A stretch of DNA of 64,000 nucleotides from an uncultured Clostridia bacterium (lineage in GTDB: Bacteria; Bacillota; Limnochordia; DTU080; RSA5): positions 36 to 64,035 of the forward strand of contig CAYRIY010000006.1 of assembly GCA_964424335.1 (NCBI GenBank), written 5' to 3'. Shown one piece after another: positions 27,047-32,339 of this stretch. The notes below the pieces were generated by a model. The model did no database searches. It saw only the letters and a program-made list of their open reading frames with translations, and was not told where the DNA came from. Positions within the stretch are counted from its first letter, which is position 1. Each line of letters opens with the position of its first letter. Both the position numbers and the translations under genes were made by a program.

Positions 27047-27181
27047 GGCGGTAGGGTCCTTCCTGTGGAAACGCTCGCTGCGCGCCCTCCTGGCGCTCCA
27101 CTCGCTCGGCCCTCGGGACCTACCGCCATCGTGGCTCCCGGCCCCTCCGGCACGTTCCCCAGGAAGGACCCTACCACCGCC
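27047..27181 (-). repeat. structured intergenic element A (paralog of element B), closing stem ggcggtagggtccttcctg / caggaaggaccctacc(ac)cgcc
   Basis: Core gtggaaacgctc...cgcgccctcctggcgctcc...cgccatcgtggct...cacgttcccc is conserved with the element at 32199-32339. Ends 14 nt upstream of the RBS of the small ORF. Confidence 0.6.
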
Positions 27182-27223
27182 GATCTCGCGCTCTTGTTGC
27201 GACGTGCTGCGATACGTGAGCCA

Positions 27224-27931
27224 TCAGCCTCTTCCAACTTTGAGCGAGATGCGAATGCCGGGCCGTAGCATGCGGGGGTTTTCGATTCCGTTTGCCTCGG
27301 CCACGCTGCGCCAGTCCTCGCTGCCGCTTGCGGCGACCATCTGCTGCAGGGACTCGCCCTCTTGGGCGGGGCGCTGCGGCTGGGTGTCCGGCCCGGTTTG
27401 CCCGTTCGCCGACGGATTGGCCCTGCCAAATTGAAACTGGATATCCTGACTCGTAAGGCTCAAGTTTACGTTGGCCCGAAGGGGCTTTCCGTCGGGCGAA
27501 AAGTACTCGAGTCGCTCGGTGATCGAGTCGACCACACCTTCAAAGAGAAACGTCCCCCACAAGAAGCGCACGCCGGGCGGGATCCATTTGTCGGCCTGCC
27601 CCTCGACCGGCTGCGGTCTGATAAAGTAGTTCACTTTCTCGGTCAGCTTGCGCACGTCGCCTGAGGGCTCTCTCGACCCGTCCGGCAGGGGCTCGGTCAC
27701 GTCAAACCAGAGGTCGAGCCCAAGTTTCGTCGTCCCCTTCCCGACAAACTGGAGCGCCGATCCCCCGCGCTGGTCGCCGCCGGCATTTTGATTGGTGTAC
27801 GTCACCGTGAGCGTCTCAGGATTGAACTGGACGGTGACGTTTCGCTCCGGATTGCCCTCATGGACGGCGCCGTTGTTGTCCCAGTAGATGTCTTGCAGCT
27901 CGGCCTTTGCAAGTCGCTCAGGCTTTGGCAT
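27224..27931 (-). CDS. LysM-domain tube-initiator/baseplate hub-like protein (Afp7-like)
   Basis: C-terminal LysM (SLQQMVAASGSEDWRSVAEANGIENPRMLRPGIRISL). N-terminal tube-like region. Start re-called at ATG 27931 (GGGGGTGG RBS), 1 nt after the stop of the upstream tube gene. Confidence 0.65.
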   Translation of the reverse strand: MPKPERLAKAELQDIYWDNNGAVHEGNPERNVTVQFNPETLTVTYTNQNAGGDQRGGSALQFVGKGTTKLGLDLWFDVTEPLPDGSREPSGDVRKLTEKVNYFIRPQPVEGQADKWIPPGVRFLWGTFLFEGVVDSITERLEYFSPDGKPLRANVNLSLTSQDIQFQFGRANPSANGQTGPDTQPQRPAQEGESLQQMVAASGSEDWRSVAEANGIENPRMLRPGIRISLKVGRG

Positions 27932-27932
27932 G

Positions 27933-28442
27933 CTAGGCCACCCCCGCGCGACCGGTTCCGGCGCCATCGGGTTTCTTGAGCGTGAGCCGCTCGTACGCGA
28001 GCTGCATCTCCTCGATCGCCACGAGCCCATCGACGGCGTTCAATGCCGGGGCCCGCAATTTGACGGGCAAGCAACGCTCGAGCAAAAACCTGGCGCTCTC
28101 CGTCTCTCGGTCGGCGGCGTACATGATGATCTCGGCATCTGCCCGAAGTCCCAGGCGGCCTTCGGTTTGCACCCGGTCAAACCAATCCCACAGGTCGAAA
28201 TTGAGGGTCATTCCTCGTCTCAGCGTCAATTGCCCGTATGAAACCGGACCGTTCAAATGAATCTGACGCGTGTTGTTGCCGCCCTCGCGGATCGTTTTCA
28301 CCTGAACGTTCATCTCAAGACCGTCGACTTCCGAAAAGGCCGCGCGGCATACGCTGTCTGAGACGCCCTCAACCTCGATTTCCACCCGAAAGTTAAATGC
28401 GGTAAACGGCGGGGATACCGTCTCTTGCGCCTCGTCCGGCAT
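27933..28442 (-). CDS. tail tube protein (Afp5/gp19-like), second copy
   Basis: FTAFNFRVEIEVEGVSDSV..AFSEVDGLEMNVQVKTIREGGNN...LTLRRGMT is the canonical contractile-tail tube signature. Confidence 0.85.
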   Translation of the reverse strand: MPDEAQETVSPPFTAFNFRVEIEVEGVSDSVCRAAFSEVDGLEMNVQVKTIREGGNNTRQIHLNGPVSYGQLTLRRGMTLNFDLWDWFDRVQTEGRLGLRADAEIIMYAADRETESARFLLERCLPVKLRAPALNAVDGLVAIEEMQLAYERLTLKKPDGAGTGRAGVA

Positions 28443-28463
28443 GGGACTCCCTCCTTCGACGCT

Positions 28464-31400: not shown

Positions 31401-31667
31401 TCTGCCGCCGTTGCGAAAGAAGGCTCGCACGGTGGCGGCCAAGTGGCCGTATACCGGCTCGCCATTCTCACGATGAGCAAGGAGGACGTCGTCGCCGAAG
31501 ATCTCCTCAAAGCGGACCTGATCGTAAACGGAGACGGGTAGGTCGATCGGGCCCGACGATGCGAAGCCGACGAAGGCGGCGACGTCCATCGGAGGAAGCG
31601 CGTCCCGCGCGGCCGGGGCGGCTGCGCTAAATGTAACCTGCGGCAAACTCCTAGCGACCAGAGCCAA
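28464..31667 (-). CDS. large tail sheath protein paralog with two inserted FN3/Ig-like domains
   Basis: Sheath N-terminus MDVAAFVGFASSGPIDLPVSVYDQVRFEEIFG. Sheath C-terminus YGALYHPWTWVAH...GAWIAPANVVLQD...ANVIARDTRGFVLLGADTL. Central segments contain W..V...Y.LEE...YYRVRA...GPWSN and LYFRVRAHADGIAGAWSN, which are FN3-like patterns. Confidence 0.8.
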   Translation of the reverse strand: MALVARSLPQVTFSAAAPAARDALPPMDVAAFVGFASSGPIDLPVSVYDQVRFEEIFGDDVLLAHRENGEPVYGHLAATVRAFFRNGGRKCYVVRVASDDAASSSFLVPGLMAIADRGPSIETAGWGSTLLWARSEGPWADGLRVGAVLRKEPYVTSGVRLTSLGIELSIAGAGTTIPQAGDLVQVDHQDPAIDGAFSRSTRLYLFVESIARSDASEGLIHTGAKARIAGSEHWFEVVAGSGAHVDPLKVKARLMSPRSEDGGAVGSHPGDGEQPARWFLPEEAGALHRVVLPFDAGASAGALIELHRGSEDPEDPSSERLLAGVTEVRDPTQEELEAVRGVDIDRWRTALVREVLAPLDPAEGRARFQLAPFERLRADRLTFDLWTRDERGITNELRRLGFAPQSPRYVGHLPTDRMLYGTERSSAPTADGPHPGLSLWNEADHPRFPLAARCGSLEASGPTLGQSVRFLPIGMEHSRRIEATSGRYLAAGTASLRAGLHRFSADLFLDPDLASIPAETLADTAFHKQYVQGRPLRRLHAVMPREDVTLLSVPDAVHPHWNEVVPIPTPVLEPPNLDPISASDIKASTHWSAVEPVGAGPVQYLLEEAFDPQFTVIVQRRRLDETEAEFEVDAVCQKVRYYRVRAEERDEVGPWSNTQVALLPSRPFEECGLVLPPPPIPAAPVLNGPEALSDGRYGLSWSPVDPPSQSMNDPAPGSSGIVYVVEQGERPDFLDAQVLYRGSDTKAQVFVQVGAAGDEGVRGPLYFRVRAHADGIAGAWSNTVVLLRPVGTAGRLVAEEIADGNDAAKVHTAMLSACAARGDMTCVMAIPAGYDDVRAAAYAARLGAGFGRGRDRALGYGALYHPWTWVAHADRSTRLIPPDGSATGVIARRTIERGAWIAPANVVLQDVVALEFDLAEDGLERLYGAGANVIARDTRGFVLLGADTLSRDAAMRPISVRRLLILIRKLALREGQDMVFAPNDAALRRRVRRRFESILSQLFVRGALAGSTPDEGFRVVTDDHARLDADLGRLIVELRVAPSRPLEFIKVRLVQTERDGGRLVESI

Positions 31668-31712
31668 GGCGTGAAGTCAACCTCTCTAACGTCCTAAGTC
31701 GGAGGCGTGGGG

Positions 31713-32171
31713 CTACGATACTTCGATGCGCTCACAGGCAAGCACCAGTTCTTCGATGGCCACGTCCGTACCGGCCCCGGATAGCGTCGGACCCGTGTAC
31801 TTGATCGGGCGGGCTCCAGCCAGTTTCCAGGTCATGGCCGTCGTCTCGTGATCCTCACTCTTGAGCTGGATGGTGACAGTCCTAAGCTGATCCTGGCTGC
31901 CGTTTCGCACCTCGTCCAGCCAGCCGTAGAGCTCGAGTACGCCTACGACGCCGCGCTTTAGCGTGACGTCGGGAACCTTGTACGTGCCGGTGATCTTGCG
32001 AGGCGCGTTGTCGCGCTCGTTTCCGTTGCGGTACTCGGCCACGGTAATCTCCATGCCAAGTCCGCTCACCTCTTGAAACCCGCCCAGCGTCGTTTCAGGG
32101 TCGTGCCCGTCTAGGCCGAGGTCGACAATGAAGTTAAATTGGCTGTACGGTCTTTCGCGGGGTTCTGCCAT
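31713..32171 (-). CDS. tail tube protein (Afp1/gp19-like)
   Basis: YSQFNFIVDLGLDGHDPETTLGGFQEVSGLGMEITVAEYRNGNE...VTLKRG matches the tube family. Start re-called at ATG 32171 (GAAAGGGG RBS). The listed start at 32213 lies inside element B. Confidence 0.85.
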   Translation of the reverse strand: MAEPRERPYSQFNFIVDLGLDGHDPETTLGGFQEVSGLGMEITVAEYRNGNERDNAPRKITGTYKVPDVTLKRGVVGVLELYGWLDEVRNGSQDQLRTVTIQLKSEDHETTAMTWKLAGARPIKYTGPTLSGAGTDVAIEELVLACERIEVS

Positions 32172-32198
32172 CTTGGTGTCCCCTTTCTTCTTAAGCCC

Positions 32199-32339
32199 GG
32201 GTTGGGTGTGCATCGTTTCTCGGTGAAACGCTCACTTCGCGCCGTCCTGGCGCTCCGTTCGCTCGCTCCTCGTCGCCTCTCGCCATCCTGGCTTCGGCTC
32301 CTCGGAAACGTTCCCCGGAAAACGATGCACACCCAACCC
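32199..32339 (-). repeat. structured intergenic element B (paralog of element A), closing stem gggttgggtgtgcatcgttt / aaacgatgcacacccaaccc
   Basis: Conserved core ggtgaaacgctc...cgcgccgtcctggcgctcc...cgccatcctggct...aacgttcccc. Lies between the sheath stop (32473) and the tube RBS. Confidence 0.6.

Follow-up and report, generated by a model that had tools for sequence, protein, structure and literature searches.

The locus described here raises the question of why an operon for an extracellular contractile injection system (eCIS) should carry two related long hairpins in the spacers between its genes. It lies in a 64,000-nucleotide (nt) stretch of contig CAYRIY010000006.1, from the assembly of an uncultured Clostridia bacterium, and this whole stretch is referred to below as the window. 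The two hairpins, elements A and B, had been singled out in a preliminary description as paralogous structured elements inside the eCIS operon, and both the paralogy and the setting are borne out by blastn, a covariance model and Pfam. In our best reading, A and B belong, as two diverged copies, to a family of strand-specific structured RNA modules that has not been described before and is apparently low in copy number. The element is very probably a genuine, selected and structured module, and a function in the processing of the eCIS messenger RNA is proposed for it tentatively.

The Pfam scan places the eCIS operon on the minus strand, its genes following one another from high to low coordinates, and the RNA is therefore the reverse complement of the sequence as first quoted. 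Element B (32199..32339, minus strand; 141 nt) is a complete module in the spacer between the first sheath gene and the first tube gene. Element A (27047..27181, minus strand; about 135 nt), likewise complete, occupies the spacer between a CIS_tube-family gene and a small open reading frame (ORF) of 56 amino acids. A covariance model run over the 64 kilobases (kb) with its filters off finds these two copies only, with scores of 110.6 bits for A and 102.8 bits for B, the next match reaching 18.5 bits; the minimum free energies are -88.3 and -83 kcal/mol, respectively. The cores of A and B share 79.6% identity over 98 nt in a blastn comparison within the window (E=4e-18), and 79-81% by MAFFT and a repeat search. 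The similarity reported earlier is thus upheld, at a value higher than the original estimate of about 75% over some 100 nt.

Each copy is closed by a long stem of its own, here called P1. In B the 5' arm of P1 (RNA sense) is at 32315..32339 and the 3' arm at 32199..32223, and the inverted repeat as a whole pairs 32199-32227 with 32311-32339 (29 nt, 90% complementary); its 20-nt distal arm occurs at those two places of the window only, against 0.00 expected. The corresponding arms of A are at 27155..27181 and 27047..27070, where 27047-27065 pairs with 27160-27178 with one G.U. These private inverted repeats are what the preliminary description had in mind when it stated that each copy is closed by a different, internally complementary stem. 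Guide-like targeting by the private arms was considered and rejected, as they occur nowhere else in the window. Inside P1, hairpin 1 is GCCA-GGA-UGGC in B (32282..32292) and GCCA-CGA-UGGC in A (27125..27135), where the loop is CGA, not GGA. Hairpin 2 is GCGCC-AGGAC-GGCGC in B (32239..32253) and GCGCC-AGGAG-GGCGC in A (27082..27096), and the GCGCC-N5-GGCGC hairpin recognized before is exact in both.

The fold of A and B is real and belongs to the strand that has the sense of the mRNA. Read in this sense, the two elements form a common three-way junction, composed of the long P1, hairpin 1 (GCCA-SGA-UGGC) on the lower stem and hairpin 2 (GCGCC-AGGAN-GGCGC), with a conserved core of about 95 nt and a P1 that is almost perfect over 25-50 base pairs (bp). 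The folding z-scores on the sense strand are -7.3 for A and -9.9 for B, compared with -4.8 and -6.2 on the opposite strand, and the energy is lower on the sense strand in 10/10 members of the family. Differences between the arms of P1 appear as 19 G.U pairs on the strand with the GGA loop versus two A.C (p=2e-4; nine independent members), and the single G.U in P1 of A is an A-U pair in L130, a near-identical metagenome copy. In the 11-sequence alignment of the model, 90.1% of the cells are paired, versus 37-49% with slid partners; changes on both sides are seen at 19 pairs, and 0/500 shuffles reach the observed pairing. On the pairing, the shuffles and the excess of G.U on the sense strand, the claim that the elements are structured RNA and not coding sequence stands. 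The peptides assigned to them in the ORF track, which had been dismissed as artefacts, are indeed plus-strand peptides in spurious ORFs.

The invariance of hairpins 1 and 2 comes partly from the search, since most members were found by a pattern that fixes both. The related eCIS locus L144 was found via its protein neighbours, and there hairpin 1 is GCCC/GGGC where B has GCCA/UGGC, a compensatory change; the hairpin 1 stems of L030 and L085, two members outside eCIS, are related by two compensatory double changes. The loop of hairpin 2 contains AGGA in every member that fits the model, and a decayed copy in L144 has AAGAG. The loop of hairpin 1 is GGA in B, in the intact copy of L144 and in four members outside eCIS (L030, L112, L131 and L132).

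The fold is self-contained and leaves both ribosome-binding sites outside the element. P1 of A stops 5 nt before the AGGAGGAG Shine-Dalgarno of the small ORF and 21 nt before its start codon at 27025. P1 of B stops 12 nt before the Shine-Dalgarno of the first tube gene and 27 nt before its start codon, the ATG at 32171, which is the true start, the N-terminus agreeing with the homologues. These distances replace the 14-28 nt given in the preliminary description, which also had B right after the sheath gene, where 133 nt of other spacer intervene. Sequestration of the ribosome-binding sites was rejected as a mechanism, the fold leaving those of both A and B free. The 133-nt spacer 5' of B is, as a whole, no more structured than shuffles (z +0.47); within it, a GC-rich hairpin at 32360-32389 (minus strand) gives a sub-threshold match to the L31-Actinobacteria leader (27.4 bits versus 35).

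An attenuator or intrinsic terminator, cutting read-through from sheath to tube and from the tube genes to the baseplate genes, would place a very stable hairpin between cistrons, as is seen here. No U-tract, however, follows P1 of either copy (A continues with AUAGCAGGAGG and B with GGGCUUAAGAAG), and a consensus scan of 26800-32700 found neither promoter-like nor minus-strand terminator-like sites. Moreover, the element folds alone, with no alternative anti-terminator pairing. We consider this explanation, which the preliminary description had entertained, to be highly improbable.

Evidence for selection comes from L144. Protein identities group the eCIS locus of the window with that of L144 as sisters, to the exclusion of the L120/L146 lineage. 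The sheath-to-tube spacer of L144 (274 nt) contains a full copy at 2582-2705 (64.9 bits) and a decayed one at 2471-2552, both in the sense orientation. The decayed copy lies just 5' of the intact one, has lost its closing stem and now has the loops GGGAA and AAGAG; no such third copy was found in the 133 nt 5' of B, the place where L144 has one. The core of B is 80% identical between the window and L144, compared with 83-85% for the adjacent coding sequences, whereas the rest of the spacer is at 53.5%, compared with 51.3% in shuffles. Since the core retains identity like that of coding sequence while the remaining spacer is at shuffle level, the core of B is under purifying selection. In P1 the two loci have the inner ~10 bp in common and differ in the distal stem. 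All four eCIS copies (A, B and the two of L144) are in the operon sense.

Other related eCIS loci have no element between sheath and tube. The spacer is 75 nt long in L120-L123, whose tube protein is 93% identical, 29 nt in L152 and L153, 42 nt in L154, and 12 nt in L124-L126. The 129-nt spacer of L155, a low-GC eCIS relative, carries an unrelated AT-rich hairpin (1327-1428; z -5.3). Its perfect 19-bp stem (GGGGGUGAGAAAAAA.../...UUUUUUCUCACCCCC) encloses an AT-rich interior, and it ends 8 nt ahead of the tube gene's ribosome-binding site, which suggests that a long hairpin at this position is repeatedly favoured. At the site of A, L146 and L147 have a spacer of 5 nt, L144 one of 35 nt and L124 an AT-rich one of 87 nt, and the genes overlap in L145. 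The module probably reached the eCIS spacers by insertion, B having probably been gained once in the common ancestor of the window and L144, and A later in the lineage of the window alone.

The module family is not specific to eCIS. Pattern scans yielded independent members in Candidatus Eisenbacteria, Candidatus Krumholzibacteriia and soil-type metagenomes. The hairpin pattern used for the genome collection is loose and returns mostly chance matches in GC-rich genomes; among the matches listed, 3 of 119 loci are real (L030, L085 and L112). L030 and L085 lie 48 kb apart on one Eisenbacteria contig, which thus has at least two copies; L112, from Krumholzibacteriia, is identical with the metagenome contig L139; and the soil-type metagenomes contribute L131, L132 (two tandem copies) and L143. 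In a metagenome resembling the source, the hairpin pattern gave A and B only. In viral contigs two patterns found nothing, and a tube-protein search gave distant loci only, without the element; blastn of B against plasmids and phages produced no match. The core identity is 92% within the Eisenbacteria genome, 69-80% among the four eCIS copies and 61-75% between groups.

The neighbours of these members are unrelated to each other. L030 is located between polysaccharide deacetylase and glycogen-debranching genes, on the strand opposite to both, and is directly followed by a 27-nt unit, CGCCGGCCGTCCGCGGTGGCTACATCG, present four times in tandem (4062-4175). L085 and a Na/Ca exchanger gene are oriented divergently, L143 takes up the spacer between convergent GNAT and SecA genes, and L112 adjoins a DsrE-family gene. 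The outer stem of L143 (713-760 and 845-884) consists of two inverted copies of a unit, TGTCACCCTGAGCYTGTYGRAGGGTGA, that resembles repetitive extragenic palindromes (REP) and is itself a small palindrome.

In every member P1 is long and nearly perfect, and outside the inner 5-10 bp its sequence bears no relation to that of the other members; even L030 and L085, with cores 92% identical, have unrelated stems in unrelated contexts. In L112, the 3' arm of P1 covers the end of the DsrE-family gene, its last codons and stop, on the opposite strand, and the Pfam domain of this gene reaches the C-terminus. That stretch of the stem is therefore native flank sequence, with an inverted copy of it as the other arm. 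Stems therefore appear to be built locally, and not carried along with the core. The stems had been taken for compensatory covariation in the preliminary description. This is supported insofar as the sister locus L144 has compensatory changes, but for the most part the stems are not drift of one ancestral stem, being unrelated beyond the inner 5-10 bp and, in L112, derived from local flank.

These same features recall REP and REPIN elements or palindromes derived from IS200/IS605. Like them, the module could be a selfish, non-autonomous hairpin repeat moving as single-stranded DNA, with eCIS copies that are tolerated and functionless. P1 would then grow by inverted copying of the flank through template switching, and the strand asymmetry would arise as the lagging-strand template folds while single-stranded. 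The patchy presence among close relatives is in line with such a repeat, as are the genome-specific subfamilies exemplified by L030 and L085, the tandem copies of L132 and L144, the independence of orientation from the adjoining genes, the native codons and stop taken into the L112 stem, and the REP-like units of L143 in a convergent spacer. In addition, it is the G-rich strand that folds in 5/5 loci of at least 6 kb, although this skew signal is weak, as five of five is not significant and short loci disagree.

On the other side, the copies have no terminal repeats in common, and the flanks of nine members contain no direct repeats that would represent target-site duplications. On these two grounds the earlier verdict that the elements are not a classical miniature inverted-repeat transposable element (MITE) is confirmed. 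Copy number is apparently low, with two in 64 kb and only A and B from the source-like metagenome. No transposase was seen beside any member, the immediate neighbours having been scanned with Pfam only, with no dedicated search for transposases or for REP-associated tyrosine transposases (RAYT). Finally, the core of B has kept an identity like that of coding sequence since the split of the window and L144 while the adjacent spacer was randomised, which would be unusual for a dead insertion. Altogether, a functionless mobile repeat seems to us somewhat unlikely. A retron, an integron attC site and a transposon end were also considered and rejected, since the genes of the eCIS operon that were scanned around A and B gave no Pfam match to a transposase, integrase or reverse transcriptase. 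Integron attC sites have conserved ends, the opposite of the conserved core of the module.

The explanation that we favour, with less than even confidence, is that A and B are cis-acting intercistronic sites for processing or stability control by a double-strand-specific RNase, with a head that binds protein. In this model, the modules would be transcribed within the polycistronic eCIS mRNA, and the double-stranded RNA of P1 (~27-30 bp) would be a substrate of a double-strand-specific enzyme such as RNase III. Cleavage would divide the message into three segments, namely Pvc16 and the first sheath gene; the first tube, second sheath, second tube and initiator genes; and the small ORF, gpD and the baseplate genes, whose stability and translation could be set separately. 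On the head of the junction, the two GGA-type loops would serve as a dock for a CsrA/Rsm-like RNA-binding protein. With about 27-30 bp in A and B, and as many as 51 bp in L112, P1 exceeds the 20 bp or so of near-perfect duplex expected of an RNase III site. The notion of a protein site in the GGA loops is based on the resemblance to CsrA sites, on sub-threshold matches to the TwoAYGGAY motif described below, and on arrays of the hairpin GCGCCAGGAUGGCG found elsewhere, in L137, L033 and L035.

Several observations weigh against this proposal. The loop of hairpin 1 is CGA, not GGA, in A, L085 and L143, that is, in three of nine independent members. No CsrA was found by tblastn in the window or the fetched loci, which cover a small part of each genome. 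L030, L085 and L112 are antisense or divergent to their neighbours and, given also that the neighbours of the family are unrelated, a cis role in mRNA cannot be its general function. In the eCIS relatives, the site of B is empty in 5/6 lineages and that of A in 4/4 lineages whose contigs reach that spacer. The preliminary description had named homologous loci without the element as evidence that would count against it; such loci are largely what was found, and the sister locus L144 nevertheless keeps a covarying element. The setting of tube-versus-sheath stoichiometry that had been suggested for A and B is at most a putative role, and the wider distribution of the family argues against it as a general function.

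A trans-acting explanation would make the head the product and P1 a processing stalk, comparable to those on either side of rRNAs, that would allow excision of the head from whatever transcript carries it: an RNA of about 90 nt would bind a CsrA/Rsm-like dimer by its two GGA-type loops and act as a sponge, its location tying production to eCIS expression. The conserved head on a non-conserved stalk agrees with this, and so do the apparently low copy number and the standalone members in any orientation, as would be the case for independent RNA genes. The core determined for CsrA by systematic evolution of ligands by exponential enrichment is CA-GGA-UG, and hairpin 1, with CCA-GGA-UGG, resembles it. 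The architecture of two GGA-loop hairpins and a variable external stem is like that of TwoAYGGAY, which A and B match over its full length; these matches, however, are far below the gathering score, and the other members give none. Against the sponge are also the loops themselves (AGGAN and SGA in place of AYGGAY, with three of nine hairpins 1 lacking GGA), the lack of promoter or terminator signals in a scan confined to the region of A and B, and the failure to find CsrA in the available sequence. We regard such an RNA as unlikely.

Of the arrays mentioned above, the one in L137 (~3510-3690, minus strand) is intergenic and repeats a 17-nt unit, GCGCCAGGATGGCGGGC, about 11 times in tandem; every unit could form a GGA-loop hairpin, and the array can be likened to a sponge of the CsrB/RsmZ type. 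In the Chloroflexota metagenome-assembled genome AS06rmzACSIP_190, L033 (1895-2040) and L035 (60-300) contain clusters of hairpins with CAGGAUG loops (GCGCCAGGAUGGCGC, CUACAGGAUGUA, CCACAGGAUGCAUGG) and a repeat unit of ~70 nt with the CAGGAUG-loop motif. These clusters may be a multi-site protein-binding RNA.

Elements of these explanations can be combined into an RNA cassette that installs itself. The module, strand-specific and ~95 nt long, would enter intergenic DNA and copy the neighbouring sequence inverted as its stem; the stem would make the transcript a substrate of a double-strand-specific RNase, and cleavage would both free the RNA with two GGA loops and cut the mRNA. The eCIS copies would then have been domesticated as splitters of the operon. 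Such a cassette would account for the private, near-perfect P1 of every copy and for the native last codons in one of them. As a complete scheme we think it quite improbable.

The gene order of the operon is as follows, all genes being on the minus strand and assigned by Pfam unless stated otherwise. Pvc16_N (35398-36015) precedes the first sheath gene (32473..34401; Phage_sheath_1 and Phage_sheath_1C), which lies 5' of B, and 3' of B is the first tube gene of the gp19 family (31713..32171; PF06841, E=1.3e-31). On its tube homologues the window would be assigned to Chloroflexota, as Ardenticatenia-like. A second sheath gene (28464-31667; 1067 amino acids) and a second tube gene (27933-28442) come next. 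This sheath paralogue is very long, with the sheath domains confined to its C-terminus, and the layout of second sheath and second tube genes recurs in the relatives L124, L144 and L146. The gene 5' of A (27224..27931) belongs to the CIS_tube family (PF19266, E=1e-25) and is tube initiator-like; the preliminary description had taken it for a LysM gene, and Pfam finds no LysM domain in it. Between A and gpD (25763-26848) is the 56-amino-acid ORF (26855..27025; MAVIINEFEV...), which is kept in relatives, with a gene of 56 amino acids at the equivalent place in L124, L144 and L146. The genes for the spike, gp25, baseplate J and Tail_P2_I are located 3' of gpD. Further 3' of the baseplate genes, a protein of 931 amino acids (12701-15496, minus strand) with C-terminal helix-hairpin-helix domains (HHH_5, DUF4332) may, judging by its domains and position, be an eCIS cargo or accessory protein. 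At the gathering score, Rfam 15 reports one known structured RNA in the whole window, a T-box leader at 46566-46840 on the plus strand (RF00230, 108.3 bits). It is directly 5' of a gene for a thiamine-pyrophosphate enzyme of 616 amino acids (46822-48672) with an acetolactate-synthase-like domain set.

A role as a processing or protein-binding site would make the module the first element of post-transcriptional control to be defined in an eCIS operon. Such operons are being engineered for protein delivery, where balanced expression of sheath, tube and baseplate matters. Independently of eCIS, it is a new candidate structured bacterial RNA, unusual in combining a conserved head with stems rebuilt from local sequence, and as such bears on how genomes come by long hairpins and on TwoAYGGAY, a class still unexplained. 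Should it be merely a selfish hairpin repeat, it would remain a useful warning that structure and conservation in an operon spacer can also mark a passenger.

Various known systems share one or another of these properties. RNase III processing stems include the intercistronic sites of phage T7, the stalks of rRNA precursors and the intervening sequences of 23S rRNA. Like them, the module places long double-stranded RNA between the functional units of one transcript, enclosing or separating RNAs, and the 23S rRNA intervening sequences are likewise patchy among close relatives. In contrast to the module, the T7 sites have no conserved three-way-junction head, and there is no sequence relationship. 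REP hairpins act as intercistronic mRNA stabilisers, for example between malE and malF. With REP, bacterial interspersed mosaic elements and REPINs the module shares strand-specific hairpins in intergenic positions, in both operon and convergent spacers, and genome-specific subfamilies. However, the arms of REPINs are conserved and the loop varies, whereas the module has a conserved head and private arms, and its copy number seems low. Only the arms of L143 are REP-like, and no association with RAYT was seen, a search for RAYT co-occurrence not having been run. MITEs are similar in being short and non-coding, with inverted-repeat ends and insertion polymorphism among relatives; unlike them, the module has unrelated arms (in A, B, L030, L085, L112, L131 and L143), no target-site duplications, an apparently low copy number and a selected core.

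The sponges CsrB and RsmZ and the CsrA sites in mRNA leaders present GGA in the loops of short hairpins, with two sites spaced for one dimer, and this may also be the arrangement of the module. The likeness to CsrA sites in mRNA extends to the GGA-rich Shine-Dalgarno regions just 3' of A and B. CsrB and RsmZ differ from the module, which has two sites only, one of them often CGA. Permissive Rfam scans of A, B and the other members returned nothing beyond sub-threshold TwoAYGGAY (RF01731) matches for A and B; these are full-length and on the sense strand, with 24.3 bits for B and 18.1 bits for A against a gathering threshold of 43 bits, and L112, L131, L132 and L143 have no match at E<=5. TwoAYGGAY was proposed to bind CsrA on account of its two loops, and its external stem is poorly conserved (PMC4333381); its discoverers judged it not to be cis-regulatory (Weinberg et al. 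2010; PMC2864571). Both have two short GGA-loop hairpins within a long, variable outer stem and are tied to no single gene context. They differ in the terminal loops, A-GGA-N and S-GA being one base shorter than AYGGAY, and the alignment of A and B to the model requires a 1-nt deletion. Their taxa differ as well, TwoAYGGAY being found in the human gut, Clostridiales and gamma-proteobacteria and the module in Chloroflexota-like eCIS, Eisenbacteria, Krumholzibacteriia and soil. While it departs from each of these systems in a defining respect, the module comes closest to TwoAYGGAY in its architecture and to RNase III sites or REP-type intercistronic hairpins in its placement.

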